NCBI GenBank assembly: GCA_016714165.1
Contig: JADJNU010000001.1
Span: forward strand, 1,411,536-1,475,535
Reading direction: 5' to 3'
Origin: Bdellovibrionales bacterium
GTDB lineage: Bacteria; Bdellovibrionota; Bdellovibrionia; Bdellovibrionales; UBA1609
Length of the DNA stretch: 64,000 nt
Numbering within the stretch: the stretch's first letter is position 1; each line of letters opens with the position of its first letter. The notes below the pieces were generated by a model. The model was given only the letters and a program-made list of their open reading frames with translations, was not told the DNA's origin and did no database searches. The translations under genes were made by a program, and so were the position numbers. Shown one piece after another: positions 10,095 through 35,930 of the stretch.

Positions 10095-11008
10095 TTCGAA
10101 CCCCTTCCCGCCAATTGGTGCTCGATTCGGTCCGCCACCTGTCGAGTCATTTCCATCAATTGTTCCGCATCCACTCGCGAGACGGTGGTCGCCGATTTCG
10201 TCTTTCTCAATTCATTGAAGAGTCGACGCAAATCAGAGGCTGTTGTTTTATAAACCTGCTTGTAACGATACTTAATTTCGTTCATCACCGCCCGATCGCC
10301 CCACTCAAGAGCCGGCACCAGAAGTCGTCTCACCAGATAGAGTCGAAAAAGCTGATCCAAATCATACACAAAACTGTTTAAACTATCCGCTTGGTCCGGG
10401 CGCAGTTTTCGCAGCAGACCCCGTATCCCTTTATTCATTTCATTGAATGGAGAAAGAGCCGTCTTGTTGGTGGCTAGCTTTTCAAGCAAGCGTTTACGGG
10501 AGTAATATCGACGGCTCTGCCGCCAAATGAAGCCAAGAACAATTAAACCAAGCAGTACCCATACACCGTACAACCAAGGCGGATAGCCCATTTGAAAGGG
10601 TCCAAAAGGTGGCACCATCTGAGCCTGTGTTTTTCCTTCTAAAACAGATTTCACTTGCCACTCAATTTTGCTCATTTTCACTGTGTTTGTGCCATCAGAG
10701 AGAACAAGATCATCTCCCACATAATTTCCAGGTTTATATCCTGTTACCACCATTTGAATTTGATCGGGAGACTGAGTGACTACTTTCAAAGGGTAGAGGG
10801 AGTATTGCTGCTCTTGTTTACTAAATCGAATACTCGGTTGAGCTTTCCATTCGCCGACGGGCTCCCCACGACACGTGAGCAGGTACTTGCTTCCAACTGT
10901 AAAGGAGTCTAGCTTTGCCGCCCCCGCTTGAGAGGCCTCTTCAAGATTGCAATTCCAGATCGGAGCGTTTGCACTGTCAGAAGCCAAACTTTCCGGATTT
11001 GAATTCAC
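10091..11008 (-). CDS. hypothetical single-pass membrane protein of the MoxR/vWA operon
   Basis: ORF translationally coupled on both sides (4-nt overlaps); central TM helix LYGVWVLLGLIVLGFIW; no recognisable catalytic motif. Confidence 0.5.
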   Translation of the reverse strand: MNSNPESLASDSANAPIWNCNLEEASQAGAAKLDSFTVGSKYLLTCRGEPVGEWKAQPSIRFSKQEQQYSLYPLKVVTQSPDQIQMVVTGYKPGNYVGDDLVLSDGTNTVKMSKIEWQVKSVLEGKTQAQMVPPFGPFQMGYPPWLYGVWVLLGLIVLGFIWRQSRRYYSRKRLLEKLATNKTALSPFNEMNKGIRGLLRKLRPDQADSLNSFVYDLDQLFRLYLVRRLLVPALEWGDRAVMNEIKYRYKQVYKTTASDLRRLFNELRKTKSATTVSRVDAEQLMEMTRQVADRIEHQLAGRGSK

Positions 11009-11880
11009 CGTCGACTCCTTCTTTTGAAGAAGGCGATCAAGGGTTCGACAATATCCTCACCCGCTTTTAAATCAATCCGATCCACCTGGGCCCTCTTCAA
11101 AGCCAATTCCCGACTGCTTGTCTTTTCTTTTGAGGACTCCAAAAAAGCTTTCCGAAACGCAGGAGATGAGGTGTCCACGGTATAGATCTCACCAGATTCT
11201 GCGTCATGAAAATCAATGATTCCCATAGCTGGGATCTCCCTCTCAGCCGGATCCTGCACCACGGCTGCAACCGTGTCATGCTTGCGCCCCAACATTCGCA
11301 GAGGACCATCAAATCCTTCATCCATAAAATCGCTAAAGATAAAAATATGCGACTTCTTTTTTAGGACCCCTTGTAAAAACTCGAGAGCCACTTTGAGTCC
11401 TGTCCCCTGAGATTTGGGTTTAAAATAATACAAATCACTCATGATGCGATGAATGTGTCCCCGTCCTTTTTTAGGCGGAACATAGTGCTCCACCTGATCG
11501 CTAAACAAAAGCAAACCCACTGGGTCCTTGTTTTTGGCGGCAGAAAAACTGAGCAAGGCCGCCAAATGCGTCACGATTTCGCCCTTGAAATACTCCTTTG
11601 ATCCAAAATTAACAGAACCGCTCACATCAACTGCCAACATGACTGTCATCTCACGCTCTTCATCAAATTTCTTGATAAAGGGCTTTCCCGCCCGCGCGGT
11701 GACGGGCCAGGAGATCGCGCGAACATCATCGCCCGGGACGTATTCGCGAAATTCTGAAAAAGTCATCCCCTGCCCACGAAAAGCAGAATGATATTCTCCG
11801 GCGAACAGATTATTCACGAGACGCCGTGTGCTCAGTTCAAGCAACTTCACTTTTTTAAGTATCTCTGGAGGTAAACTCAA
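11005..11880 (-). CDS. DUF58 family protein (vWA-like MoxR partner)
   Basis: Typical DUF58 N-terminus LSTRRLVNNLFAGEYHSAFRGQGMTFSEFREYVPGDDVRAISWP and MIDAS-like VDVSGS; immediately downstream of MoxR ATPase. Confidence 0.8.
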   Translation of the reverse strand: MSLPPEILKKVKLLELSTRRLVNNLFAGEYHSAFRGQGMTFSEFREYVPGDDVRAISWPVTARAGKPFIKKFDEEREMTVMLAVDVSGSVNFGSKEYFKGEIVTHLAALLSFSAAKNKDPVGLLLFSDQVEHYVPPKKGRGHIHRIMSDLYYFKPKSQGTGLKVALEFLQGVLKKKSHIFIFSDFMDEGFDGPLRMLGRKHDTVAAVVQDPAEREIPAMGIIDFHDAESGEIYTVDTSSPAFRKAFLESSKEKTSSRELALKRAQVDRIDLKAGEDIVEPLIAFFKRRSRR

Positions 11881-11881
11881 A

Positions 11882-12871
11882 CTAGGGCACCTCGATATGA
11901 CTGAGCAGCTCCTTAATGATCTCTTCGGAACCGACTTCTTCGGCCTCAGCTTCGTAGGTTAAAATCAGTCGGTGGCGCAAAACATTGTAAGCAACGGCCT
12001 TAATGTCTTCAACTGTCACAAAGCCACGCCCCCTCAGAAACGCATGGGCTCTGCCGGCACGAGCCAAATTGATTGTCGCTCGCGGAGAAGCGCCTACCGC
12101 CAATAAGCTCTGAATGTGACCCAAACCATAATCGCTCGGGCTGCGAGTTGCCATGACCAATTCCACAATATAATTTTTCAATTTTTCGTCGACGTAAATG
12201 GAGTCAATTCTCTCTTTGGCTCTCATCAATTCTTCTCTTCCGATTACCGACTCAATCTGTGGTGAATGATCTGTCGACATTCTATCCAGAATCAAGGCCT
12301 CTTCTTCTTTTTTTGGATAGGTCACAATTACTTTGAACATAAATCGATCGAGTTGGGCTTCGGGCAGCGGATAAGTTCCTTCTTGTTCCAATGGATTTTG
12401 AGTTGCCAGAACCAGAAAAGGTCGCGCCAAAGGGTAGGTTTCGTCTCCAATCGTCACCTGCTTCTCAGCCATGGCTTCAAGCAGGGCACTCTGAACTTTC
12501 GCTGGAGCCCGATTGATTTCATCGGCCAAAACGATATTGGTAAAAATAGGTCCCTTTTTCGGCATAAACTCATTGGTCTTCATATTGAAAATCATCGTTC
12601 CAATGAGATCTGTAGGCAAAAGGTCGGGGGTGAATTGTATTCTTTGAAATTGCAAGGAAGTGGCTCGACCGATCGAGGAAATAACCAAGGTTTTTGCCAA
12701 GCCTGGCACACCCTCCAGCAAAACATGGCCTCCAGTTAAAAGACCCATAATTATGCTCTCGACCATTTCTCTCTGACCGACAATGATCTTGCCTACCTCG
12801 ACGATAACTTTCTCGACAAATTTGCTTTCTTGTTTGATCGCTTCGTTTAGCGCCAGTATGTCCACTTGCAC
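11882..12871 (-). CDS. MoxR-family AAA+ ATPase
   Basis: Walker A GVPGLAKT, Walker [11 protein letters not shown], typical MoxR length 329 aa. Confidence 0.9.
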
Positions 12872-13129
12872 GGCGTGTCTCCTCTCCGCTGACCGACCAA
12901 AAATGTATCCCGTCCACGAAAAAGCGAAATATTCTCATGGCATGGGGCTCCCATTCTCACAGGATGATCACGGAGTGACAAGAAATTCTTGAAGTTTCTC
13001 ATTGGGCGAACAGGATTTTCGCTATACACTTGCCATGAAGCAAATCAGTTGCCAGTTCGATTCTACTTGGCAATATTAGAACAATCCACGCAAGACGAGG
13101 AGCCAGAATGGGACCTCACTTCCTGAGAG

Positions 13130-16908: not shown

Positions 16909-18240
16909 TCGGTTCATGGTGGGTAATTCAAAAAAGTCATTTAAGCACAAGCATTTAGGTATCTGAGTCTATACAATTTAAAACTTTTAACGCCGTAAGC
17001 CCTCTTCTGGATTAGCTTTGCGACGTTGTTAAAGCCTTCTGTTCTGGCATTGGTAATGCGGTTGACGAAGTAATTCAAGATTTCATTTCTCCATTTCATG
17101 AGGGTGCGCCTGAGGGTTTTTATTTCGGGGATTTGGCTTAAAGCCATTTGATCTGTAATTCGAATTAACACTTTGGCAGCTGTTCTGTTTCCTTTGATTC
17201 GGTAAAATCCATGGAGGGCTTCTTTGTAATGATAAATTTCTTTTAGCTGGGGATGAAGATTGAGCCATTCATAAAGGGCTCTTCGTTCATAGGACTCAAG
17301 CTTTTACCATTTCTAAGTAGGAGTTTTCGAAGGGGACTGGTTCTTTTGTCGCCAGTGACTTGTTTTCGGTAGCGATTAAGAGCTGGATTTAAAAGCCTGA
17401 GCACATGGAACTTATCAGCAATCATCTGGGAGTTAGGAAAAAACTCTCGAACAAAGCTTTTATAGCTATCTGACAAATCTAGAACGACGTTTTTTACATT
17501 TTCTCTACCAGGGATATGTTTAAGTTGTTCAATGAGTTGCCCCTTTTACTTTTCCATGAGCGAGTTCACGAACACGCTTATTGTTGTAATCAACGAGTAC
17601 GGTTGCAAACTCTCTAAACCCATTGGCTCGAGAGAAAAGTGTTCATCTATGCCAATGGTTTTTGGCCACGGATAATTGATATGCCTCTTGAGGTTCGTCT
17701 CTAACCTCTCATAAAGAGTCTGATAGACCGTCCACGTTGAACATGCATAGGCCCTTCTGACCTTACTGAGATCCGTAAAGTTCTCACAGGCCCAAAGAAC
17801 ACCTCGTTTAAACCTCTCGGTGGTTCTTTTTCCTTTTCTGATTCCTTGAACTGGTTCGGTGAAAGGCTTTCGGCAGGTCTTACAATAGAATCTGCGTTTT
17901 AAAACATGGAGCCAGACTTGATTGCCGTGGATGGGAGCATCGTGTGCTTTGGCCCACCTTCGATCATAAACAGTCTTAGAAGGTGTCGCACACTTTGGAC
18001 AGATTTCAAAGCTGGATACTTTTTCAACCTGTTTGTGCTTTCGGCCAGATCGATCTCTCCCAAATTTTAAAAGTTTTAATTCTGGTAATAATAGAAATTG
18101 TGATATTTTTTCGTGCTGAGGCATAAGTTCTTTTCCTTTCAAAGGTTTGAGTTGTCAGGCACCCAAATCTTAGCTTGAAAAAGTCTTAGGCCTCTTCTTT
18201 TTTGACTTACCGCATCCCACCTCCAACCGTGGAGAACCAA
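16901..18240 (-). mobile_element. ISL3-family insertion sequence remnant (~1.34 kb) with imperfect terminal inverted repeats
   Basis: Left end ggttctactcggttcatggtgggtaattcaaaaaag vs reverse complement of right end ggttctccacggttggaggtgggatgcggtaagtcaaaaaag; transposase fragments inside; no clear target-site duplication found. Confidence 0.65.
16941..18142 (-). pseudogene. ISL3-family transposase disrupted into three ORFs (198+77+76 aa) by frameshifts
   Basis: N-fragment has zinc-finger CPKC...CKTC and IGIDE (first D of DDE); middle fragment IADKFHV; C-fragment TEGFNNVAKLIQKRAYGVKSFKLYRLRYL matches ISL3 C-terminal signature. Confidence 0.75.
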
Positions 18241-18471: not shown

Positions 18472-20100
18472 CTACGGTTCCATACCCCTACACTCCAATT
18501 GCAGACCTAAATTTTCAGCCAAGAATGGCAAGACACTCTTATCCCGTAAACTTTCAGAGCACAGATAGTTGCGAGCCTTATCCCTTCCCACATTAGACTG
18601 ACCATCTTTTACTATAAAACCAAGAGCGGCGACGAAACTTCCCAAACGTGAGTCTTTGGGAGCAAGCGCCTTATAAACGTCCCAACCAACGACAAGACTC
18701 CACACCCCTAGAATGTTTGCATTTGCGATAAGCCAATCGGTGCTATTTCCGACTGACCACATCAAACACTCAGGAATTTTCTTACGCCAAAATTTTCCAT
18801 CGTAAGTGGGTTCAATATCTAAGTCTCCGCAAAACGGTTTCGTAGGCACATTTGGACTTCCCAAATAGAGCGATTGAAAGTTCTCTCTATCCATCTCGCC
18901 AAGATGAACAAACTTCGACGTGAGATTAAATGGCGGATAACCCATTACTGTTCCCAGAGAGGGATCACTCAGCCAAGCTCCAGCGAAGTTGTGATTCCAG
19001 CCTAAAAAATGTCCCATCTCATGAAGCAAAAGCCACATAACCAAACCTTCTGGATCTGGCCTCAAGATTTGTGAATACTTGCCAATCCGTGAGAAACCCA
19101 ACGCTGTCTGTATAAGAGTCGAAGGATTTTCTACTAACGCAAGCTCGCTGGCCGTCCCCAATCGGCGCGCGACTTGGCTTGAATCGTTGTAGAGATAAAT
19201 AATTCCTCCCATGACTCTGCCTGTTCTCGGATCAGCCGTCACAGTGGATGTTCCATGTTCACCCGTCCATGTGAATTCTTCGCCGCCATGCCACTGGATA
19301 CACAAAATGTTTTCCGTTAGGCAATCCGTGACATTTAGGTCCTGTTTCCCACCAAAGAAATAGTAGTTATGTCCAAAAAGTTGATTCCATTCACCAAGGG
19401 CTCTTTTCAAAACGTCGATAAATCGATTCGGAAAATTTGGATTTACAAGCACTCTCCGTGAACCAGTGCGAACGGGATGATTAAAGAAATAACGTGGTCC
19501 TGGAAACGGCCGAGTATCAATTCCGAAGAGAGCCTGGATCGACAAATCGCCAATCATTCTCTCATTGTTTGGGGTGAAACTAAGGCCCGGAAATATTTTT
19601 GATCCCACAAGGTATTTGGTCTCTATTTCCTCAATCTTGGTCGGCATCAGAACAAGAACGAATTGTCTTTCAGAAAAATTCAAAATAATTTTGTCTTCGC
19701 CGGAACGTGAAAGAGTGAATGCGTCAGCTCCAGATCTCACCCCCCAGACGAAAGGTTCCAAAGTAGGAGACTCAGAGAGGTTTACCGCACTGAACGTCCA
19801 CTCGATAACGCCGCCCCGTTTCGGATCTGAGGGATTTTTAAAAATGGCTCTTTGATTGAGCGGCAATTCTTCCGAAAGTACCAGATCACCGTTTACTGAT
19901 TCTACTTTCCAACTCTTGACCACAAGACCTGATGCCTCGCTGCCAGATGCATCGTAGGCAACTGACGTAATGTTTTTCCATTTTGCTAGGGAGGCTTTAA
20001 CTTCCGAGGGCCACGTCCGAACTTCCGCCCAAGACCCTCGGCAACAAATCGACATAAAAATGAGTGTCAAAATTTGGCAAAAACGCATATCGCTGATCAC
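18472..20100 (-). CDS. secreted zinc metalloprotease, metzincin-like (HEMGHFLGWNH = HExxHxxGxxH)
   Basis: Signal-like N-terminus; extended zinc-binding motif LLLHEMGHFLGWNHNF; possible start at 20088 (MRFCQILTLIF...). Confidence 0.6.
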   Translation of the reverse strand: MISDMRFCQILTLIFMSICCRGSWAEVRTWPSEVKASLAKWKNITSVAYDASGSEASGLVVKSWKVESVNGDLVLSEELPLNQRAIFKNPSDPKRGGVIEWTFSAVNLSESPTLEPFVWGVRSGADAFTLSRSGEDKIILNFSERQFVLVLMPTKIEEIETKYLVGSKIFPGLSFTPNNERMIGDLSIQALFGIDTRPFPGPRYFFNHPVRTGSRRVLVNPNFPNRFIDVLKRALGEWNQLFGHNYYFFGGKQDLNVTDCLTENILCIQWHGGEEFTWTGEHGTSTVTADPRTGRVMGGIIYLYNDSSQVARRLGTASELALVENPSTLIQTALGFSRIGKYSQILRPDPEGLVMWLLLHEMGHFLGWNHNFAGAWLSDPSLGTVMGYPPFNLTSKFVHLGEMDRENFQSLYLGSPNVPTKPFCGDLDIEPTYDGKFWRKKIPECLMWSVGNSTDWLIANANILGVWSLVVGWDVYKALAPKDSRLGSFVAALGFIVKDGQSNVGRDKARNYLCSESLRDKSVLPFLAENLGLQLECRGMEP

Positions 20101-22252: not shown

Positions 22253-23839
22253 TCATGGCTTGCGGGATCGCCACCCAGAATCAGGCACGAGCGACATCGC
22301 GTATTCTGAAATAGCAGTAATCGATAAACTGGGATTGACTCCTAGGTTGGCAGAAATCACCGATGCATCTAGCACATAAAAATTATCATAGCCATTGAGC
22401 TGAAACTTGTCGTTGATCACGCCAGTTTCTATTTCAGATCCCATCGGACAGCCTCCCAATATATGTGCGGTGGAGGGCAAATTATAGAACACCTCGTGAA
22501 TGGCGTTCACGGAAAGTCCATTCACCTTTCTCGAAAATCTATGCATGACCTCTTGACCAACCTCGATATAAGTGGGAACAGCCAGACCTTTAGCCTCTCG
22601 CATTTTCATATTCCAACCAAAAATTGACTTTTCTAGAACCATTTTCATCGAGCTATCAATTGTCTGCATCACTAAAAAGAATACAGATGTTTCTGCAAAT
22701 CTCCGAACGAAAAAATACCTCATCGCAGAGAGGGGGTTTGATAAAATCTGCGCCAAACATTTTAAGATTCGGACTGGAGCCGGCCCAGGTCCTGCGGCCA
22801 ACACCCCTAGACGACCCATCAAACCGCTGCCGTTAGGATATTTGCAAATCTCAATAAATGTTTTGTCGTCGGGGTGAAAGACAGAGGAGATCGCCACGCC
22901 ATTGTTCAGCTTACGATCAGCCAATGCTGTCCCACACAAAGACTCAGAATTGGTTCGAAGATCTCCACCCAAATGATCTGAAACTTTTGGCAGCGTTTGA
23001 AACTTATATTTTTGCTCTAACAATATCTTCATCGTTCCTAAAACGCCAGCTGAGAGAACAACACCTTTACTGCGAAAAATATCCGTCTTCCAAATTTTCC
23101 AACTGGTGCTTTTTCGAGTGTGAATCCAGTATTCATCGCCTTTAATCTCAATTTTAGTCACCAAAGTTTCAGCTCTGATTTGACAACCCTTCTTCTGTGC
23201 CAAATAAAGATAATTCAAATCCAAAGTGTTCTTGGCCAAATGCTGGCATCCTACCATGCAGCCCGCACATTGGGTGCAGGGCTTTCGCAATGGACCTTCG
23301 CCATCAAAATAGGGGTCAACTTGCTCATTTGATTCTGAAAAATAGACTCCGACCTCGACCGGAGCAAACGTGTGTCCCATTCCCAAATCTGTGGCGACTT
23401 CATGAAATATTTGATCTTCGACGTGCAACTTCGGAACAGGAACGGTTCCCAACATCTTTCTTGCCAAGGCAAAAAATGGCTTTAATTTTTCCTCCCAATC
23501 TCCGAATCGCACCCAAGAACCTTGTCGAAAAAACTCTTTATCGGGATACATATGGGTGTTGGCGTAAACAAGACTACCTCCCCCAACCCCAACTCCGCTC
23601 AAAATAAAAGCTTTGTTAAAAAAGTGAATTTGCTGAATCCCAAAGCATTTTAAGAGTGGCCACCAGAGATATTTTTTAATATGCCAATTGCTCTTTGCGA
23701 AATCCTCGGCCCTAAATCGTTTCCCCTTTTCCAAAACGAGAACAGAATATTTTTTTTCAATGAGTCTCAGTGAGCTCACACTCCCACCAAAGCCAGAGCC
23801 TATCACTATGTAATCAAAAATCGGATGACTATCGGCCAT
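22253..23839 (-). CDS. GMC-family FAD-dependent oxidoreductase (cholesterol oxidase-like)
   Basis: N-terminal FAD fold DYIVIGSGFGGSVSSLRLIEKKYSVLVLEKG; length 528 aa; C-terminal GMC-type region. Confidence 0.75.
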   Translation of the reverse strand: MADSHPIFDYIVIGSGFGGSVSSLRLIEKKYSVLVLEKGKRFRAEDFAKSNWHIKKYLWWPLLKCFGIQQIHFFNKAFILSGVGVGGGSLVYANTHMYPDKEFFRQGSWVRFGDWEEKLKPFFALARKMLGTVPVPKLHVEDQIFHEVATDLGMGHTFAPVEVGVYFSESNEQVDPYFDGEGPLRKPCTQCAGCMVGCQHLAKNTLDLNYLYLAQKKGCQIRAETLVTKIEIKGDEYWIHTRKSTSWKIWKTDIFRSKGVVLSAGVLGTMKILLEQKYKFQTLPKVSDHLGGDLRTNSESLCGTALADRKLNNGVAISSVFHPDDKTFIEICKYPNGSGLMGRLGVLAAGPGPAPVRILKCLAQILSNPLSAMRYFFVRRFAETSVFFLVMQTIDSSMKMVLEKSIFGWNMKMREAKGLAVPTYIEVGQEVMHRFSRKVNGLSVNAIHEVFYNLPSTAHILGGCPMGSEIETGVINDKFQLNGYDNFYVLDASVISANLGVNPSLSITAISEYAMSLVPDSGWRSRKP

Positions 23840-23982
23840 AGAGATTATTAAATCCCCTCACCCGATAGAAGATCAAGGCCTAAAATGTACAGGGTTTTAC
23901 CCAACAAGCAGATAAAACCATATTGACCCATAACTGCAAAGCCCGCGTTAGTCCACGCAAAGACCAAGGATTTCCAAAACCC

Positions 23983-26553
23983 TCACCGTCCCGTCGGCCA
24001 CGTTTCAGGAAGCAGTCCCTTTTCGTAAGCAACAGGCAAGGCCCTGAGCGGGCTTGTCCTATCAACGAACACAAAGGCATCATAACGATGAGAGAGCTCC
24101 GTCGGAACATAGTTTCTGCCATGAGATTCAAAAACGGGTTGATAAACAACCCCTACCGCTCGATGGCCTTTGCGTAAACTCAACGAGTCTTCACCGTTCA
24201 TCACAACGTAAAATTGAGGGGCCTCTATTTGCTCAGATGCTTTGTGAAAGTAATCTTCATAGCTGCTGTTTACAGCTGGAGGAAGTTTCATGATTTCAGG
24301 TTTGGCTTCCCAAGCTCGCCCCGCCAAAACCTCTCCCTGATAGGTTCCAAAGCCTATCAATACCACGTTATCCATCCCATATCTCTCTCTGGCGAGCCCA
24401 CCCAAATTGACGTATCCCTCTCTAACCATATCGGTTGCATGATAGTCGCCTATGTGAGTGTTATGGGCCCAAACAATGGCCTTCGCTCCTTCGCCGTGAT
24501 AGCGCAAAAGCGCGTCCAAAGAATCCATCATGTGTTCATCACGAATATTCCAGGACTCAGCTCCCCCAATCATCATGGCCCGATAGTATTTTTCCGCGTT
24601 ACGAACTATTTTGGCATTTTGCTGAACATCAAAAAGTTCATGTTCATATAGACGAGTTTCTTCAAGTCGAAGTCGTAAAATATCACGCAAACTCCGAGTT
24701 ATTTCCTTTTCGCATCCTGCCGGCCACTTCATCAGGGATTTGGCATATTCCTTTTCATTTCGGCTATAAAAGTCGAAACAAGAATAGGATTCCAAAACAC
24801 GCTTTTCCAATTCCGGGTCGAGTCTTTTTGCATGGGATCTGACTCGATCTAGAGACTCATAAAGTGAATAAACGTCAAGACCATAAAATCCTGCGCCACG
24901 ACCCCTCATCCATTCAACCAGATCAGCCACTTGTTCATTAGCCCACATCCAAGTGGGCCACCTGTTAAAATCATGCATGACTTCCTCAGCACTTTTTCCG
25001 GCTCGTAGCTGAACATATTGATTGAGGCGATAGCAATCCGGCCAGTCTCCTTCAACGGCTACGAAACTGAAGCCATAATCTTCTATTAAATTTTGCGAAA
25101 TAACTTTTCTAATTTGATAAAACTCCTCTGTGCCGTGGGTGGACTCACCGAGCATGACCACTCTGGCCTGGCTTATTTTTCTTAGGAGTGGGTGATAGCT
25201 TTCCTCCGAGGTTATGGAATGAGCCAGACTTGAAATCTTTTGCACGACAGCTTCATGAGGTTTTGCGGTGAGGTCGATACTTTCTTTGGTCAAAGTATTT
25301 AAAAACCAATCTCCCGCGTATTCGACGACCTCATCAATGGCCCCCGGCTCATCAAATAAATGCGTCGCCCCAGGAACAATGACCAACTCGCAATGCTTCA
25401 GATGTCTCTTGGCTTGTTGATTTAACTCAATAACAGCAAAATCACTTCCGCCGACGATAAGAAGTGTTGGACACTGAACCTGGCCTAAGGCTTCTTCTGC
25501 CAAATCAGGCCTGCCACCACGACTCACCACCGAAGAAATACTCCTCTCCTTGGAAGCCGCAACAAGAGCTGCGGCCGCCCCAGTGCTCGCACCAAAATAA
25601 CCGATTGAAAGCGACTTCAATGTGGCATTATTTTGAATCCACTGAGTGGCGATTTGAAGCCTTTCACTCAACAGCGGAATGTTAAACACCTGAGACCGAT
25701 CCTCCGCCTCTTTAAAGGTTAAAAGATCAAAAAGAAGAGTGGCGAAGCCCAATTTATTGAGGGCCTTTGCGACAAACTGGTTGCGTGGGCTTTTATGGGA
25801 ACTGCCGCTTCCATGGGCGAAGATCACAACCCCCTTTGGTTCTCTGGGAACCGAGAGGTCACCAGACAGACTGAATTTTTGAACGGGAATCTTAACGGTC
25901 TTAGAACTTTCTTCTGCCTGAATCTTCCCAGCCAGAATATTGGTAACAACCTCATCAGTGACCTGTGTGAAATCTTCGTACCACTGCCCCACCGAAAAAA
26001 ACGGCTCTGGAATTTGCAACACGACAATTTGGTCAACCTTGGTCTTAAACGAATCCACTGCGGATCGAGAAGCCACAGGCGCAGCGATTATGATCTTCTT
26101 GACTTCCCTGCGTTTTAAAAATTCAACGGCTGCATGCATGGTCATCCCCGTAGCCAAACCATCGTCTACCAGAATGATCGTTTTGCCCTTTACGGCTAAC
26201 GGAGCACGTCCATTGCGCCATTTGCTTGTTTGCTCCATGATTTTCTTTCGGGTCTTCTCAGCCAAATCGTGAAGTTTCCTCTTTTCAAGACCAAGGAAAG
26301 AGATGGATTCTTGATTCCAAATTGGATGTTCGTCCTCAGATACTGCACCAATTGCAAATTCGGGCTGATCAGGCGCCCCAATTTTTTTAACTAACAAGAC
26401 ATCCAAAGGAAGTTTGAGTTCTTTTGCAATCTCCCAAGCGAGTGGGACACCCCCTCTTGGAAGTGCAAGAATGGATGCCTTTTTCCAATCTGCGTCTTTA
26501 AGTTTTTCAGCTAGTAACTGACCAGCAGTTTCGCGATCTTTTAAATTCTTCAT
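23983..26553 (-). CDS. three-domain fusion protein: N-terminal type I phosphoribosyltransferase, central alpha/beta (dienelactone hydrolase-like) hydrolase, C-terminal erythromycin esterase (EreA/ChaN)-like domain
   Basis: PRTase PRPP loop IILVDDGLATGMTM; hydrolase region VVIFAHGSGSSHKSPRN...GFATLLFDLL; Ere-like region ARVVMLGESTHGTEEFY and following ~400 aa. Confidence 0.65.
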   Translation of the reverse strand: MKNLKDRETAGQLLAEKLKDADWKKASILALPRGGVPLAWEIAKELKLPLDVLLVKKIGAPDQPEFAIGAVSEDEHPIWNQESISFLGLEKRKLHDLAEKTRKKIMEQTSKWRNGRAPLAVKGKTIILVDDGLATGMTMHAAVEFLKRREVKKIIIAAPVASRSAVDSFKTKVDQIVVLQIPEPFFSVGQWYEDFTQVTDEVVTNILAGKIQAEESSKTVKIPVQKFSLSGDLSVPREPKGVVIFAHGSGSSHKSPRNQFVAKALNKLGFATLLFDLLTFKEAEDRSQVFNIPLLSERLQIATQWIQNNATLKSLSIGYFGASTGAAAALVAASKERSISSVVSRGGRPDLAEEALGQVQCPTLLIVGGSDFAVIELNQQAKRHLKHCELVIVPGATHLFDEPGAIDEVVEYAGDWFLNTLTKESIDLTAKPHEAVVQKISSLAHSITSEESYHPLLRKISQARVVMLGESTHGTEEFYQIRKVISQNLIEDYGFSFVAVEGDWPDCYRLNQYVQLRAGKSAEEVMHDFNRWPTWMWANEQVADLVEWMRGRGAGFYGLDVYSLYESLDRVRSHAKRLDPELEKRVLESYSCFDFYSRNEKEYAKSLMKWPAGCEKEITRSLRDILRLRLEETRLYEHELFDVQQNAKIVRNAEKYYRAMMIGGAESWNIRDEHMMDSLDALLRYHGEGAKAIVWAHNTHIGDYHATDMVREGYVNLGGLARERYGMDNVVLIGFGTYQGEVLAGRAWEAKPEIMKLPPAVNSSYEDYFHKASEQIEAPQFYVVMNGEDSLSLRKGHRAVGVVYQPVFESHGRNYVPTELSHRYDAFVFVDRTSPLRALPVAYEKGLLPETWPTGR

Positions 26554-26893
26554 AGACCACCCCGGTATCCCTTAATTCAAACACGCCGCCATCAACTCAA
26601 GGAGCAGATTTCATGCCATCAGCAAGTGCGGTAAATTCGTTCCCTATTCGATCTGAGGAACATCAAAGGATGCGGTGCGGGACATTTTGAGCAATTGAAA
26701 GTGGATCGAGTCCCAAAATGAATTCATTTATTGAATTGATGTAGTGATTTCGCATTCCCATTTTCCTTTTTTTATAAAACTCGTACCACCGCAGGCAATC
26801 ATTCATTTTTGCTGTTCCAATCTGAGACAAAAATGGCAAGCCTCTTTGGCGGATTCTTATTACTGTGCGAGAATGTCAGGATGAGGGTCGTTC

Positions 26894-27403
26894 ATGACGA
26901 AGGTATCTAGATGGCTGATTCTGATTGTAACAACAATTCCAATGCTTCTCAGTTTTCAGAATTGCGGAGATAGATATTTACCCAAGGTTCACATCGCTTC
27001 GCAAAAATCGGATATCAAGTTTTCAAAATTGAATGCTGTCAGAAAAGTCGAGGCCAATTGCCTTTCAGGCTCTTCCTACCTGTGTCGAATCAATCGTTAT
27101 TCTCCAGGACTTGCCGATGGCCGCCGTGTCAATCACGTTTGTGTTTCAGTAGAGAATAATGAAGTTTGCGTTGATGGAGATGACTGGAGTTATGATTCGT
27201 CTGAGGCCCTCCAATTTTGTCCAGATTGCTCCGCTGCCGATGGCCTTCCTGGAGGACGATATGATTACGCAGAGATTGCCTGTTCCTTTGGAGATGAGGC
27301 GAAAATCTATTCGCGCGCAGAAAGCTCCGAGGCGAAGATCGAAGAGTACTTGAAAACGTCCGTAGAGCTGTGTCTATTTGAGGCAAGGCAACAAATACGT
27401 TAA
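26894..27403 (+). CDS. small secreted cysteine-rich protein (169 aa, ~10 Cys), hypothetical
   Basis: Signal peptide MTKVSRWLILIVTTIPMLLSFQNC; many Cys; no recognisable domain. Confidence 0.45.
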   Translation: MTKVSRWLILIVTTIPMLLSFQNCGDRYLPKVHIASQKSDIKFSKLNAVRKVEANCLSGSSYLCRINRYSPGLADGRRVNHVCVSVENNEVCVDGDDWSYDSSEALQFCPDCSAADGLPGGRYDYAEIACSFGDEAKIYSRAESSEAKIEEYLKTSVELCLFEARQQIR

Positions 27404-27427
27404 TTGTTGAGGTAAATACTTGAGCAT

Positions 27428-28177
27428 TTGCCAGGAAACGACGAAGAGGCTATTGTGAGACTATTGTTATTTTTCTTTCTCTTCGCTCTTGCTCCCATCG
27501 ACAGTCACGCACATGTGGCTCTGACATCTCCCACTCCACGACCCGGCACCACAGATAGCACGAAGACAGCTAACTCTACAACCAATCCCTGTGGCGGCGT
27601 TAACAGAGGGGCAAATTCAGTTACATTTGCGGCAGGATCTAATTTGACATTCTCATGGAGAGAAACAATCGAGCACCCTGGAAGATTCTTGGTGCAGTTC
27701 TCACCGGCGAATGATCAGTCCTTTGAACTTCCTGCCAACGAACTCTTTCGCAAAGAGGACACAGAGACCAGGGGAACCCATTCAGCGACCGTAAAGCTGC
27801 CAAATACAGCCTGCGAAGCCTGCACACTCAGGTTGGTTCAAGTAATGGATGACCAACCCGGAGAACTCTACGTCAATTGCGTGGACATTCGCTTGACCTC
27901 TTCATCTGAAACGGCTCCACCCAATTCGGGATCGCCAGAAAACACAAGCCAGGCCTCACAGGGGGGAAGCGATGGTGGAAAGACTAAAATGCCGGCTGGT
28001 TGCGCGCTCGCCTCGGGGCGACTCAATCAAATTGGAGACAATCGGCCAACCGGTGGGGGGCATTTCGGAAACCCATCTTGCGGCCTCATCACTCTTATGT
28101 TATGGACTTTGCCACTCCTCGCCTTGCTGATGCTGAAGGTGCAATCAAGAAGATTTCGATTCACACGTCAGCAGTAA
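27428..28177 (+). CDS. secreted compact AA10-LPMO-like protein (predicted N-terminal His after signal cleavage) with low-complexity linker and C-terminal Cys + TM + basic tail anchor
   Basis: Predicted cleavage ...SHA|HVALTSPTPR (cf. AA10 HGYVESPASR); FSWRETIEHPGRFLVQF (cf. FTWKLTARHSTTSWRYFIT); LVQVMDDQPGELYVNCVDIRL (cf. [21 protein letters not shown]); C-terminus CGLITLMLWTLPLLALLMLKVQSRRFRF. Confidence 0.45.
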   Translation: MPGNDEEAIVRLLLFFFLFALAPIDSHAHVALTSPTPRPGTTDSTKTANSTTNPCGGVNRGANSVTFAAGSNLTFSWRETIEHPGRFLVQFSPANDQSFELPANELFRKEDTETRGTHSATVKLPNTACEACTLRLVQVMDDQPGELYVNCVDIRLTSSSETAPPNSGSPENTSQASQGGSDGGKTKMPAGCALASGRLNQIGDNRPTGGGHFGNPSCGLITLMLWTLPLLALLMLKVQSRRFRFTRQQ

Positions 28178-28224: not shown

Positions 28225-29604
28225 ATGAAAATTGGAAAACGGGTTCTCATCACCGGAGCCACTGGATTAGTCGGAGTCGAGCTTTCCAAGGCCTTGATTG
28301 CCGCGGGATATGATTTGGTTATTCTTGGACGGCGACAGGAAATGGAATTTAGGCAGTCCTTTACTCTGCCTTGCGAATACCATGTTTGGAACGATTCCTC
28401 TCTCACTTTACCTCCCAAGGAAGCACTCAATGTTGATTACGCCATCAACTTGATGGGCGAATCCATAGCCAAAGGACGGTGGACAAAATCACAAATGAAG
28501 CGAATTTGGGATTCAAGAGTCCCTTCAACGAAAAATCTCGTGACTGCACTCAACCAGCACACACCTCATCTATCAGCTTTCATCTCGGCTTCTGCGATTG
28601 GCTTTTATGGCGATCGGGGCGACGAAATCTTGTCAGAAAGCACTGGGCCTGCAGATGATTTTATGGCCCGCCTTTGCGTCGATTGGGAGGCGGCTTCAAG
28701 AAAAATTCAATCTCGTTGCGTTCAAATTCGCATTGGTCTCGTGTTGTCCAATAGGGGCGGAGCTTTGGCCCAATTGGCTCCCCTATTTGAGAATAATCTG
28801 GGAACAACAATCTCTGACGGGCAACATTGGCTCAGTTGGATTCACATCGACGATCTCGTAAATATTATTCTCTTCGCTTTAATAAATGAAGAAGCGAGAG
28901 GACCAATCAACGCTGTAAGTCCCAATCCTGTGACCAACGCAGAATTCACGAAAGAGCTTGCGCGTGCCTTAAAGACAAAGGCCCTTTTTAAAGCACCCTC
29001 ATTTGCCCTTAAATTGGTTCTTGGTGAAATGGCCAAAGTCATACTTAGCAGTCAGAAGCTAACACCATCAGTCCTTACGAGCTTTGGATTCACGTTTGAA
29101 TTTCCAGAAATCGCCGATGCACTCCAAAATTTGTACAGCTGGAAGCGTTCAAGGCATGATCGTTTGTTTCAGGCAGAACAATGGGTCCCAAAGTCCAGGG
29201 AGTTTGTCTTTGGTTTTTTTGCGGACGAGAGAAATCTGGAAGAATTGACTCCAGACTTCTTGGATTTTCATATTGTCGGAAAAACAACTGAGCAAATTTC
29301 AGAAGGAACTCAAATCGAATACAGGTTAAAAATACACGGAGTTTCAACTCGGTGGAAAGCCCAAATCACCTCTTGGCGTTTTGGGGAAGAGTTCAAGGAT
29401 ATCCAGATTGTGGGCCCATATAAGGTCTGGGAGCACAGGCATATGTTTTTTGATTTAGCCGGGGGCACTCTATTGAAAGATCAGGTTGTGTATCAGCTTC
29501 CGTTGGCGAAGATTGGCGGAAATATTTTAGGACCCCTCATAGCGCGAGATATTGTGAGAATATTTGAGTTTAGGAAGTTAAAAATAATTGAAAGTTTCAG
29601 ATAG
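28225..29604 (+). CDS. fusion of TIGR01777/YfcH-type NAD-dependent epimerase-family protein (with DUF1731-like end) and C-terminal SRPBCC (polyketide cyclase/Bet v1-like) ligand-binding domain
   Basis: Rossmann LITGATGLVGVELSKALIAAGYDLVILGRR; ~150-aa C-terminal extension with beta-rich START/SRPBCC-like pattern. Confidence 0.65.
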   Translation: MKIGKRVLITGATGLVGVELSKALIAAGYDLVILGRRQEMEFRQSFTLPCEYHVWNDSSLTLPPKEALNVDYAINLMGESIAKGRWTKSQMKRIWDSRVPSTKNLVTALNQHTPHLSAFISASAIGFYGDRGDEILSESTGPADDFMARLCVDWEAASRKIQSRCVQIRIGLVLSNRGGALAQLAPLFENNLGTTISDGQHWLSWIHIDDLVNIILFALINEEARGPINAVSPNPVTNAEFTKELARALKTKALFKAPSFALKLVLGEMAKVILSSQKLTPSVLTSFGFTFEFPEIADALQNLYSWKRSRHDRLFQAEQWVPKSREFVFGFFADERNLEELTPDFLDFHIVGKTTEQISEGTQIEYRLKIHGVSTRWKAQITSWRFGEEFKDIQIVGPYKVWEHRHMFFDLAGGTLLKDQVVYQLPLAKIGGNILGPLIARDIVRIFEFRKLKIIESFR

Positions 29605-32577: not shown

Positions 32578-34170
32578 TCACTGTTTATGAATTCGATCTT
32601 CGTAGGCCGCCAGTGCCGTTTTGGCTCCCTCTCCCATGGCAATGATAATTTGCTTGTAGGGAGTTGTCGTCACATCTCCGGCAGCATAGATTCCAGGTAC
32701 CGAAGTGCGACCCTTGCCATCTACGATCACTTCACCAAATTTGCTCAATTCTACCACATCTTTTAAAAACGCACTGTTCGGAACCAAGCCAATCTGAATA
32801 AAAATGCCATCAAGATCAATTTTCATCATCTCGTCTGATTTTCTATCCAAATATTCCATCGAATGCACTTTTTGGCCATCTCCCAAAATTTGATGGGACT
32901 TGGCATTGGTTATCACAGATACGTTAGGAAGGGATTTTAATTTTTCGATCAAAATATTGTCTGCTTTTAACTGGTCCATGTACTCTACCAATACGACTTC
33001 GCGCACGATTCCTGCAAGATCAATTGCAGCTTCAACTCCTGAATTACCCCCTCCGATAACAGCAACCTTTTTGCCCTTATAGAAGGGGCCGTCACAGTGA
33101 GGACAGAAAGCAACTCCTCGCCCAAGGTATTCTCGCTCTCCTGGTATGCCGAGCTCTCGCCATTTTGCCCCGGTCGCAACTATCACCGAATCACTTGAGA
33201 GAGTCTCGCCACTCTCTAATTGGATTTCCCTTTTCTCATTACTTTTAAGACCTCGAATTTTTCTATTCTCGAAAACTTGGATGGGATAAGAGGCCACATG
33301 TTGATTTAAATTTGCGGCCAATTGGGGACCTTCCGTATACGGAATCGATATGAGATTTTCAATCCCTTTGGTTTCCTGGACCTGACCGCCAAATTTGTCT
33401 GCTATTAAAGCTGTTTTAAGACCTTTTCGCACACTGTAAATGGCCGCGGAAACTCCCGCCGGACCTCCTCCGATCACAGTCATATCAAAGTGACCCAAAT
33501 CCAAGTCGACGGACTCCTCTGCCGCCTCACTTATTCCAAATTCCTTCTCAAGTTTGGTTAACAAATCCAAAAGGCCAATTCTGCCTGAATGAATCAGTTT
33601 TCCATTGGATACAAGACTCGGAACTCCCTGAATGCCAATCGCATCGATCTCATCTTGAGCATAGGCACCATCTATGATTTCGTGACGAAAGTTCCCATGC
33701 AGCAGAGACATTTGATTGAGCGCCTGCACCACATCGGGACAATTTTCGCATGTCAGAGAAATATAGGACTTGATTGAAATAGGTCCCTTCAGTTTCTTAA
33801 TTCGCTTGATCAAGATTGAATCTGGAAATTTCCCTTTCCCGTCGGCATTTAATATGGCCAGAACGAGAGTGCTGAACTCGTGACCGCCGGGAATCCCCCT
33901 AAAAGAAATTCCCGTGCGGTTTCCCTTATATGCCAGATGAAACTGTGGAACTCTGGACTGTCGTCCATCAGAGGGGACGCTTAGCTGAGACGAGACATTT
34001 GAACTGGTCGCAGCAACCCCATCCAGTAACTCAATCAATTGAGCCTGATCCTGATGAGAACTTGGCTCATACATGAGTTCCACCGATCCCTCAAGATCTG
34101 AAAAAAGGGATTTCAACTGCTCATTCAACTGGGTCTCTAACATAAGCGCCTCCTTCTCAGGCTCACTCAA
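32578..34170 (-). CDS. ahpF: alkyl hydroperoxide reductase subunit F
   Basis: Redox CPHC motif, FAD/NAD GxGxxG motifs (VIGGGPAG, VIGGGNSG), N-terminal thioredoxin-like CxxC; adjacent to ahpC. Confidence 0.9.
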   Translation of the reverse strand: MSEPEKEALMLETQLNEQLKSLFSDLEGSVELMYEPSSHQDQAQLIELLDGVAATSSNVSSQLSVPSDGRQSRVPQFHLAYKGNRTGISFRGIPGGHEFSTLVLAILNADGKGKFPDSILIKRIKKLKGPISIKSYISLTCENCPDVVQALNQMSLLHGNFRHEIIDGAYAQDEIDAIGIQGVPSLVSNGKLIHSGRIGLLDLLTKLEKEFGISEAAEESVDLDLGHFDMTVIGGGPAGVSAAIYSVRKGLKTALIADKFGGQVQETKGIENLISIPYTEGPQLAANLNQHVASYPIQVFENRKIRGLKSNEKREIQLESGETLSSDSVIVATGAKWRELGIPGEREYLGRGVAFCPHCDGPFYKGKKVAVIGGGNSGVEAAIDLAGIVREVVLVEYMDQLKADNILIEKLKSLPNVSVITNAKSHQILGDGQKVHSMEYLDRKSDEMMKIDLDGIFIQIGLVPNSAFLKDVVELSKFGEVIVDGKGRTSVPGIYAAGDVTTTPYKQIIIAMGEGAKTALAAYEDRIHKQ

Positions 34171-34210
34171 ACACCATTTGTCGTCATCTGTTCCAATTTT
34201 TCGAATCTAT

Positions 34211-34777
34211 TTAGATTTTTCCAACGAGATTTAAGCCAGGCTTTAACGTTTTATCTCCGGGCTGCCACTTTGCTGGACAAACTTCGCCAGGATGACTTGC
34301 AACATACAAGGCCGCTCGAGTTTTTCTGACCAACTCATCAGCATTTCGACCGATACCGTTGTCTTGGACTTCCGCAAGCTTAATGTTTCCGTCTGGATCT
34401 ACGAGAAATGTCCCACGATAGGCCAAACCAGCTTCTTCAATGTGCACGCCAAAGGCACGTGAAAGGTGACCTGTCGGATCAGCTAACATAGGGTATTTGA
34501 TCTTTTTGATCGTTTCCGAAGCATCGTGCCAGGCCTTGTGAACAAAATGCGTATCAGTGCTGACCGAATAGACTTCTACACCCATCTCTTTTAATTGGCT
34601 GTATTTGTCAGCTAAATCGCCCAATTCGGTCGGACACACAAAAGTGAAATCAGCTGGGTAGAAAAAAAATATCGACCACTTACCAGTGAGATCAGCTTTG
34701 CTCACTGTTTTAAAACTATCATTGTGATAGGCTTGGACTGTGAAATCCGGAATTTTTGTATTGATTAGTGTGTTCAT
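34211..34777 (-). CDS. ahpC: peroxiredoxin AhpC
   Basis: FTFVCPTE peroxidatic Cys motif and C-terminal resolving Cys (EVCPAKW); start at ATG 34777 with AGAGGAG RBS. Confidence 0.9.
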   Translation of the reverse strand: MNTLINTKIPDFTVQAYHNDSFKTVSKADLTGKWSIFFFYPADFTFVCPTELGDLADKYSQLKEMGVEVYSVSTDTHFVHKAWHDASETIKKIKYPMLADPTGHLSRAFGVHIEEAGLAYRGTFLVDPDGNIKLAEVQDNGIGRNADELVRKTRAALYVASHPGEVCPAKWQPGDKTLKPGLNLVGKI

Positions 34778-34858
34778 ATTATCTCCTCTTTTGTCGTTTG
34801 TGGGCTCTGCACCCGATTTCATCTTTTTTCACAGTAAGCCAAAATCATGTGATTTGTA

Positions 34859-34891
34859 AAATCGATAAAATATATTTATTGATCGATTTTA
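34859..34891. promoter_or_regulatory. perfect 9-bp inverted repeat AAAATCGAT-N15-ATCGATTTT in oxyR/ahpC divergent intergenic region; candidate operator
   Basis: Direct reading aaaatcgataaaatatatttattgatcgatttt followed by further atcgatcg. Confidence 0.3.
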
Positions 34892-34940
34892 TCGATCGTG
34901 TTAAAAAAAGGGAAATAGAGGCTCCAAATAATTCTAGAAC

Positions 34941-35930
34941 GTGCCAAATTGTCACAAGGAGTTATTCATCAAGTCAAAACTCAACTTTTCTTTGACGCAG
35001 CTCGAATATGTTCTTGCAGTTCATAGACTTGGACACTTTGGAAAAGCGGCAGAGGCTTGCCATGTCACTCAATCAACTCTCAGCATGCAAATTCAAAAGC
35101 TGGAGGAAGAGTTTGGGGTTGGCTTATTTGACAGAAGTTTAAAGCCATGTCTCCTCACTGAATCTGGAGAAAAACTCATTGAACAAATACAAACTGTTCT
35201 TTTTGAAGCAAGAAAGATCGTGGATTTAATCGGCTCGAGCCAAGCAGGTGCAACGAAGGGAAGCCTCAGTATTGGAATTATACCAACGGTGGCACCCTAT
35301 CTTTTGCCACGTCTGTTGCCAACATTGGAAAAAAATTTTCCACATCTGGAGCTGCAAATTTCAGAGATGCAAACTCACCGCATAATCGAAGAGTTGGAAC
35401 GCGACAGTCTCGACGTTGGCTTGCTCGCAACTCCCCTTGAAATATCAAAAATTCACGAGCAAATACTCTATTACGAGCCATTTTATGTCCTTTGTGGAAA
35501 TAGCCACGAACTTAGTCAACGAAAACGAATCCGACAGGCAGAACTGAAGCTAAAAGATATCTGGTTACTCGCAGAGGGACACTGTTTGCGCAATCAAATT
35601 TTAGATGTCTGCACAATTAAGCAAGAAAGGGGATTCCGAATGAAGTACCGATTTGAAAGTGGAAGTCTTGAAACCCTGAAGCAATTGGTCGACTCCTATG
35701 GAGGATATACTTTGCTCCCCTTTCTCGCAACAGAATCAATTGGGCAAAATTCTCGAGTTATCCCCTTTGAACGCCCCATTCCTGCACGGGAAATCGGACT
35801 TGTCTATCGGCGGCAACACTACAAGACAAGCCTCATCGGATCCCTTACCAAAGGGATCTCTGATTGCCTTCCTTCCGATTTGAGAAAAATGCGTCAGAAG
35901 GATTTAGATGTCTTGCCCGTCGATCAGTAG
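34941..35930 (+). CDS. oxyR: LysR-family regulator, OxyR-like (divergent from ahpCF)
   Basis: LysR HTH LTQLEYVLAVHRLGHFGKAAEACHVTQSTLSMQIQKLEEEFG; classic divergent arrangement with ahpCF; true start uncertain. Confidence 0.7.
   Translation: MPNCHKELFIKSKLNFSLTQLEYVLAVHRLGHFGKAAEACHVTQSTLSMQIQKLEEEFGVGLFDRSLKPCLLTESGEKLIEQIQTVLFEARKIVDLIGSSQAGATKGSLSIGIIPTVAPYLLPRLLPTLEKNFPHLELQISEMQTHRIIEELERDSLDVGLLATPLEISKIHEQILYYEPFYVLCGNSHELSQRKRIRQAELKLKDIWLLAEGHCLRNQILDVCTIKQERGFRMKYRFESGSLETLKQLVDSYGGYTLLPFLATESIGQNSRVIPFERPIPAREIGLVYRRQHYKTSLIGSLTKGISDCLPSDLRKMRQKDLDVLPVDQ

Follow-up and report, generated by a model that had tools for sequence, protein, structure and literature searches.

The stretch under study, called the window below, comprises 64,000 nucleotides from a Bdellovibrionales bacterium (contig JADJNU010000001.1, positions 1,411,536 to 1,475,535). 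Its minus strand carries at 23983-26553 a single gene for a protein of 856 amino acids (aa) in which a phosphoribosyltransferase (PRT), a dienelactone-hydrolase-like (DLH) and an erythromycin-esterase-family (ERE) domain follow one another. An earlier note, made from the letters alone, had described this open reading frame (ORF) as a three-domain fusion, and all three domains were recovered in our analysis. According to the ORF list and its translation, the frame starts with ATG and runs through 856 codons without interruption. The gene and its domains are arranged as follows.

23983-26553, minus strand: whole gene of the PRT-DLH-ERE fusion, 856 aa (ORF list and translation; the stop codon, 23983-23985, is included)
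25927-26553, minus strand: domain 1, type I phosphoribosyltransferase of the TT1426 subfamily, residues 1-209 (PF00156, PDB 1wd5, Foldseek)
25291-25908, minus strand: domain 2, small alpha/beta serine hydrolase of the 2o2g 'DLH-like' subfamily, residues 216-421 (2o2g, Foldseek, Pfam)
23986-25260, minus strand: domain 3, PF05139, 'RWPTWMW' subfamily, residues 432-856 (Pfam, PDB 2qgm/2rad, Foldseek)

Homologues over the full length of the protein are found in more than 120 clusters, mostly from Bdellovibrionota, at 49-92% identity. They were obtained by a search of 5.8 billion proteins, which gave 2,276 matches among 8,000 candidates scored; the figures are taken from the best 120 clusters. Their members are 844-907 aa long, with a 654-aa partial sequence as the sole exception, and nearly all span 99-100% of the query. 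Complete genomes are among the sources, namely those of Bdellovibrio bacteriovorus, B. svalbardensis and Bdellovibrio sp. BCCA. An alignment of 23 sequences (A1) retains both short linkers and shows invariant motifs in each domain. Since the frame is continuous, the same architecture recurs in all these clusters and the linkers are kept, a frameshift or a chimera, and with it the possibility of several genes read as one, is excluded. Annotations of the Joint Genome Institute (JGI) and NCBI already name all three domains, e.g. 'erythromycin esterase-like protein/predicted phosphoribosyltransferase/dienelactone hydrolase' (JGI). The PRT-DLH-ERE fusion is the standard form in Bdellovibrionota and has been annotated before; the original observation is correct and not new. 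The view that the fusion is unusual does not hold. Its parts are moreover adjacent or fused in pairs in many phyla. The gene almost certainly encodes a real, conserved, tri-functional enzyme.

The N-terminus (MKNLKDRETAGQLLAEKLKD...) is devoid of a hydrophobic signal-like stretch, and neither a signal peptide nor a lipobox is present in the translation, in agreement with what had been noted from the letters. A signal-like N-terminus is lacking because the PRT fold begins at once, residues 3-4 onward aligning with the start of TT1426. Judged from its translation, the fusion protein is cytoplasmic.

In Pfam, residues 11-165 of domain 1 score 75 bits with Pribosyltran PF00156 (cutoff 26.3; E 5e-21). 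Residues 4-207 match TT1426 of Thermus thermophilus HB8 (PDB 1wd5, 'predicted phosphoribosyltransferase') at E 3e-38, with a Foldseek TM-score of 0.84 on target. This likeness runs from end to end and includes the loop for phosphoribosyl pyrophosphate (PRPP), counterparts of Arg32 and Lys56 and a long inserted helix. TT1426 is a stand-alone protein of 208 aa, whereas the fusion carries the same domain as the N-terminus of a three-enzyme chain. Two stretches hold the residues expected of the active site.

26383-26457, minus strand: stretch with R33 (26455-26457) and K57 (26383-26385), from the alignment to 1wd5
26140-26181, minus strand: PRPP-binding loop TIILVDDGLATGMT, residues 125-138, containing the previously quoted VDDGLATGMT at residues 129-138

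The loop consists of a hydrophobic run, two acidic residues and G-x-x-T-G-x-T, as is typical of type I PRTs, and D130, D131, G132, T135 and G136 within it are invariant. D130, D131, K57 and E65 are kept in 36 of 36 PRT sequences; position 33 is Arg in 32 and Lys in 4 of them. R33 and K57 align with Arg32 and Lys56 of TT1426, which have been proposed as pyrophosphate binders (PMC2427199). Y192, F195 and Q197 in the C-terminal segment of the domain are also invariant. We considered an anti-phage PRTase effector (retron type III-A PRTase, ShosT) and rejected it: PADLOC returned only short, weak matches around the PRPP loop (ShosT, E 6.5e-6 at residues 98-158; PRTase_III-A, E 2e-3), defence partner genes are missing, and no retron, reverse-transcriptase or ShosA-like gene was found among the neighbours of the fusion gene in the window.

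Domain 2 is matched weakly by the Pfam models for DLH and related alpha/beta hydrolases at about residues 235-413 (E 1e-6, 29 bits against a cutoff of 21) and strongly by PDB 2o2g, a 'dienelactone hydrolase' of Anabaena, at residues 219-421 (E 1e-56). Foldseek superposes the domain on 2o2g with a TM-score of 0.94 and an rmsd of 1.1 A, at 49% identity over the aligned domain. Its secondary structure in AlphaFold2 is that of a minimal eight-stranded alpha/beta hydrolase, in which the following elements are located.

25780-25815, minus strand: HGSGSSHKSPRN, residues 247-258, the oxyanion-hole HG (H247-G248, after beta3) followed by invariant Ser/Arg/Asn; invariant in A1 and across phyla
25579-25593, minus strand: nucleophile elbow G-A-S323-T-G, after beta5 in the model; S in 32 of 33 sequences
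25504-25524, minus strand: SRGGRPD, residues 344-350, an invariant loop
25360-25443, minus strand: triad partners D371 (25441-25443, after beta7) and H398 (25360-25362, after beta8), placed by the secondary structure of the model

All features of the 2o2g subfamily are thus in place, with GxSxG after beta5, the acid after beta7, the His after beta8 and HG after beta3, and in 33 DLH sequences D371 is kept in 32 and H398 in all. On the model, domain 2 has a Ser-Asp-His triad. The classical dienelactone hydrolase of Pseudomonas works with a Cys-His-Asp triad in which Cys is the nucleophile. Since Ser323 and not Cys takes this place in G-A-S-T-G, we rejected an enzyme of the Pseudomonas type, and domain 2 is DLH-like in fold and Pfam family only. 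The Anabaena variabilis protein behind 2o2g (YP_324580.1) has the HGSGSS..SPRN, GxSTG and SRGGRPD motifs in common with the fusion and likewise lacks the Cys nucleophile of the Pseudomonas enzyme; it comes from structural genomics, stands alone and has no substrate in its entry. The HGSGSSxxSPRN and SRGGRPD loops may form an anion-binding site, to go by alpha/beta-hydrolase topology. As these Arg/Ser/Asn-rich loops flank the active site in that topology, they hint at an anionic, possibly phosphorylated, substrate.

Domain 3 matches Erythro_esteras PF05139 at residues 490-833 (E 4e-104, 349.5 bits against a cutoff of 26.4). The domain matches the structures of Bcr135 and Bcr136 (2qgm, 2rad/3b55), and Foldseek adds EreC (6xcq/6xcs); against the PDB, Foldseek recovered 2qgm, 2o2g, 2rad/3b55, 1wd5 and then EreC (6xcs, 6xcq), in this order. 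Bcr135, Bcr136 (2qgm, 2rad, 3b55) and EreC have the fold in common with domain 3 (TM-score 0.68-0.80 on target) at 16-21% identity. In the alignment with Bcr135/136 the motifs GExxHG, E-x-D-W and HNxH fall together, and the assignment of E470, H473 and E501 to E47, H50 and E78 of EreC rests on identical spacing.

25132-25149, minus strand: G-E470-S-T-H473-G, by spacing the putative equivalents of EreC E47 and H50 (the catalytic base and the Glu that positions it)
25051-25053, minus strand: E501, 28 residues past H473, a spacing equal to that from H50 to E78 in EreC
24937-24963, minus strand: RWPTWMWAN, residues 531-539, subfamily-specific and absent from Bcr135/136
24454-24471, minus strand: W-A-H697-N-T-H700, the HNxH motif of the Ere family, aligning with WAHNIH / WGHNGH of 2qgm and 2rad

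E470, H473, E501, H697, H700 and R671 are kept in 80 of 80 ERE sequences. EreC coordinates its catalytic water through H50, E78 and H289, with H50 kept in place by E47 and the transition state stabilised by R261 (PMC7979712). H289 probably corresponds to one of the two His of the HNxH motif, and the invariant R671 may match R261, with a register uncertain by one residue. Further motifs invariant in the subfamily, GLDVYS, HRAxGVVY and a C-terminal PETWPxG, have no counterpart in Bcr135/136. The region had been described as an EreA/ChaN-like domain of about 420 aa. Its assignment to the Ere family stands; a ChaN-type haem protein was discarded, as no ChaN or haem-binding family occurs among the Pfam matches at E <= 0.01 and a signal peptide is missing.

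An AlphaFold2 model computed on A1 has a mean pLDDT of 84.4 and a pTM of 0.52, with low confidence at residues 210-214 and 424-430. On this model the chain consists of three well-folded domains on flexible linkers. The catalytic residues are kept in all three domains (D130, D131, K57 and E65 of PRT 36/36, DLH 32-33/33, ERE 80/80), in fusions and separate-gene versions alike and across phyla, which answers the call for a check of the active sites.

Where else do the three subfamilies meet? One genome per species was surveyed with two ERE motifs, and 80 of the 564 loci confirmed in this way were retained; together with a metagenome locus from a 92%-identical relative (L001) the counts refer to 81 loci. 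The domains of the window were mapped on them by tblastn and open frame, within 7 kb. RWPTWMWAN served as a search pattern, so that the conservation of residues 531-537 in the surveyed loci is partly circular. The arrangements were distributed as follows.

39 of 81 loci: ERE only, no PRT or DLH within 7 kb
20 of 81 loci: all three as separate genes within 7 kb
8 of 81 loci: PRT-DLH-ERE in one ORF (L001, six Bdellovibrionota or related genomes, one actinomycete)
5 of 81 loci: ERE and PRT as separate genes
4 of 81 loci: PRT-ERE fusion
3 of 81 loci: PRT-DLH fusion plus ERE
1 of 81 loci: DLH-ERE at least, the N-terminal side being limited by a contig edge
1 of 81 loci: DLH and ERE as separate genes

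PRT and/or DLH hence lie within 7 kb in about half of the ERE-seeded loci, far above expectation for families of about a single copy in genomes of several Mb. Separate genes form same-strand operons in L009, L012 and L034, and many Chitinophagaceae have ERE in divergent orientation to DLH and PRT. A search with the PRT domain among 1.84 billion representatives (of 50%-identity clusters) returned 14,261 at E <= 1e-3 and 2,157 at E <= 1e-30. Compared by BLAST with the domains of the window, the best 150 of these representatives include 23 PRT-DLH, 2 DLH-PRT, 3 PRT-ERE and 2 triple fusions. Members of these narrow subfamilies are thus joined in several different combinations, PRT and DLH even in both orders, a classical signature of functional coupling. 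The three enzymes therefore probably work together.

The literature search returned no paper mentioning all three domains together, and papers on COG2312/'Ere-like' proteins and on Ere with USP, Hsp20 or dormancy yielded nothing functional. Synechocystis slr1916, considered as a possible Ere homologue, was dropped, since the papers speak only of a 'probable esterase'.

The ORFs flanking the 81 loci were clustered and representatives scanned against Pfam. Recurrent neighbours are DUF892 (12 loci), PEBP (9) and HSP20 (8), besides Usp, CBS pairs, BON, PEP synthase, P-type ATPase and GAF histidine kinases. One or more genes of the stress type (HSP20, Usp, CBS, BON, DUF892, PEBP, PEP synthase or P-type ATPase) lie nearby in 27 of 81 loci, a raw count without a formal background in which many loci are related Chitinophagaceae; the association is therefore treated as suggestive. 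Several loci carry four or five such neighbours. Among the triple fusions of Bdellovibrionota, L002 (with CBS immediately upstream), L003 and L004 have stress-type neighbours. In B. bacteriovorus CP169237.1, an HSP20 gene at 8364-8828 of locus L082 (minus strand) is divergent from the adjacent fusion orthologue at 9001-11583 of this locus (plus strand; 2904030-2906612 of CP169237.1), and the B. svalbardensis orthologue lies beside FtsH and mevalonate-pathway genes.

This setting of HSP20, Usp, CBS and P-type ATPase genes resembles the DosR regulon of M. tuberculosis. Rv2030c, with a PRT domain and of the Ere superfamily, lies within the Rv2028c-Rv2031c (hspX) operon (PMC4410610), and the HSP20 gene beside the B. 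bacteriovorus orthologue echoes the reported adjacency of hspX and Rv2030c. Rv0571c is a 'putative phosphoribosyltransferase' that is DosR-regulated and starvation-induced, and in the papers it is, like Rv2030c, uncharacterised. Rv2030c and Rv0571c are two-domain proteins, whereas in Bdellovibrionota the triple fusion is found. The C-terminal half of Rv0571c is, by database annotation, presumably DLH-like. Clusters of 440-680 aa representatives, in which M. tuberculosis homologues were sought, returned only proteins of Bdellovibrionota or from metagenomes. The most informative context of the fusion, which the earlier note does not mention, is a recurrent three-gene module tied to stress and dormancy genes; a role in stress or dormancy as such we hold to be evenly balanced between yes and no.

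The surroundings of the gene in the window itself are of a different kind. Upstream lies the following region.

26554-26893, no strand assigned: intergenic region of 340 bp upstream of the fusion gene, shared divergently with the plus-strand gene at 26894-27403

It contains a purine-rich GGGGTGG at 26557-26563, just 5' of the ATG, as a possible Shine-Dalgarno sequence. Promoter and terminator scans of the fusion locus gave no match above shuffled background, and a search for a riboswitch or leader RNA (Rfam at E <= 1, window positions 23500-27500) returned only a chance snoRNA match. In nine related loci, Rfam at gathering threshold gave no element apart from two group II intron matches (D1-D4-4; 67 and 55 bits) in L004, a locus from a metagenome-assembled genome of Oligoflexia. 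They lie at 11352-11499 and 12822-12970 of this locus on the plus strand and flank the HSP20 gene that adjoins the fusion orthologue.

The next gene downstream on the strand of the fusion, after a gap of 143 bp in which no terminator was found, encodes a cholesterol-oxidase-like GMC oxidoreductase (22253-23839, minus strand; NCBIfam CholsOxChoxAB, 524 bits, under the cutoff of 850). In L001 this gap measures 19 bp. None of the other 80 loci shows this pairing, and the oxidoreductase was rejected as a pathway partner since it is conserved only in this 92%-identical relative. An AraC regulator is also among the neighbours. On the other side of the fusion, a protein with a BIM1-like/LPMO_10-like copper-binding domain (27428-28177, plus strand) begins with a signal-like segment and ends in a hydrophobic tail, and a single ORF of 459 aa (28225-29604, plus strand) joins an NAD-dependent epimerase, DUF1731 and an SRPBCC/polyketide-cyclase-like domain. 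In a Bdellovibrio-like bacterium one would not expect a BIM1/LPMO_10-like domain; the gene is conserved in L001. An AhpF-AhpC peroxiredoxin pair (32578-35930), 6-8 kb from the fusion, stands beside a divergent LysR-type (OxyR-like) regulator; in L004, AhpF lies about 5 kb from the fusion orthologue. Farther off, a 198-aa ORF (17546-18142, minus strand) with only the zinc ribbon and HTH of an ISL3 transposase looks like an N-terminal fragment of that family. A 542-aa ORF without a Pfam match (18472-20100, minus strand) has a zinc-metalloprotease-like HEMGH motif and an N-terminal hydrophobic segment. At 9090-12871 (minus strand), a MoxR-type AAA ATPase, a DUF58-like protein and a vWA-domain membrane protein follow in a row, Bat/MoxR-like as judged from their translations.

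What might the fusion do? We propose a cytoplasmic protein that unites in one chain a three-enzyme module of wide distribution, composed of a TT1426-type PRPP-dependent PRT, a 2o2g-type Ser-Asp-His hydrolase and an Ere-family esterase that would activate water by His and Glu independently of metal. The three activities would serve one small-molecule pathway. The PRT domain would transfer ribose-5-phosphate from PRPP onto an aromatic or heterocyclic acceptor, or bind such a phosphoribosyl compound, and both hydrolases would then cut ester or lactone bonds, either in this compound or in a precursor of it. The domains would act on flexible linkers rather than around a fixed channel, and the protein would be made or needed once growth stops, as in starvation, hypoxia or heat. 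For the module as a whole, cooperation of the three enzymes in a stress-linked role is slightly favoured. The specific chemistry, a PRPP-dependent transfer followed by ester or lactone cleavage of the same compound, is a tentative suggestion that we regard as rather unlikely to be right in this form. Equally speculative is the broadest version, that PRT, DLH-like and Ere-like enzymes jointly make, remodel or destroy a novel phosphoribosylated ester or lactone metabolite with which cells would enter or survive non-growing states, in a pathway shared from Bdellovibrio and Bacteroidota to the DosR regulon of M. tuberculosis.

Several observations weigh against this proposal. The survey was seeded on ERE motifs and is biased to loci that contain ERE. 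The ERE-only loci show that ERE can exist alone; so can PRT, as 113 of the best 150 PRT representatives are stand-alone in size. The stress-neighbour count is a raw one, as stated above, and the neighbourhood of the window itself is devoid of HSP20, Usp and CBS genes. The putative likeness to Rv2030c and Rv0571c is taken from the domain descriptions of papers. A fixed inter-domain geometry or channel is unsupported, given the pTM and the low-confidence linkers of the model. Finally, members of all three subfamilies, the three PDB relatives included, are without an assigned substrate, and the remark in the earlier note that the substrate is not obvious remains true.

Among other explanations, the PRT domain could be a ligand sensor for PRPP, a nucleotide or an alarmone that switches both hydrolases by nucleotide or energy status. 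PurR-type regulators use PRT-fold domains as PRPP sensors in this manner, the frequent neighbours Usp and CBS are adenine-nucleotide-binding families, flexible linkers fit a regulatory layout, and the PADLOC matches to PRTase effectors are weak. A pure sensor is nevertheless improbable. The catalytic set is complete and does not vary, from the DD in the PRPP loop and the equivalents of the Arg and Lys proposed to bind pyrophosphate to Y192, F195 and Q197, and most members of the PRT family, at about 210-240 aa, stand alone and have no partner domain to regulate. The enzymes could also have unrelated substrates and be fused or clustered just for co-expression in a general stress regulon, with no pathway in common. 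Many loci have only one of the three, no packing between the domains is predicted, and stress islands gather functionally diverse genes. Yet the same three narrow subfamilies recur in PRT-DLH-ERE, PRT-ERE, PRT-DLH and DLH-PRT fusions and in tight operons or divergent pairs in several phyla, a specificity that the other stress genes nearby do not have, and we give mere co-expression a similarly small chance.

An antibiotic-inactivating enzyme, i.e. an Ere-type esterase for macrolides or other lactones with accessory domains, is suggested by membership in PF05139, the intact catalytic Glu and His of Ere and the Foldseek match to EreC, at an identity to EreC of only 16-17% (Foldseek). It is very unlikely. 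The NCBIfam resistance models score far under their cutoffs (EreB 35 bits against 750, EreD 17 against 800), which makes macrolide hydrolysis unlikely, and the gene is chromosomal, conserved in Bdellovibrionota and many soil phyla and located beside stress genes rather than mobile elements. Bcr136, which is structurally closer, reportedly cleaves model esters and not macrolides (Morar et al. 2012). 'Dienelactone hydrolase' and 'erythromycin esterase', the names used for the domains at the outset, are thus right for the families and no more than labels for the activities, in view of the Ser323 nucleophile and the EreB score. An artefact that joined two or three genes by frameshift, mis-assembly or read-through would accord with the domains being separate genes in other phyla; with a continuous frame, retained linkers and an 850-870 aa architecture in more than 120 independent clusters, complete Bdellovibrio genomes included, it is ruled out for practical purposes.

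The fusion protein is ordinary within an annotated family, and it is the family itself that is large and functionally unsolved. Structural genomics has provided one structure per subfamily, none with an assigned substrate, and two genes of the M. tuberculosis dormancy regulon carry these domains according to the literature and remain uncharacterised. The pattern of fusions and neighbourhoods turns this into a testable claim of one pathway, for which the single-chain form in culturable Bdellovibrio offers an experimental entry. If a phosphoribosylated ester or lactone is indeed handled, it may be a signal or an intermediate in the repair of damaged metabolites, and the single-chain form of Bdellovibrio would be the most convenient handle on the chemistry.

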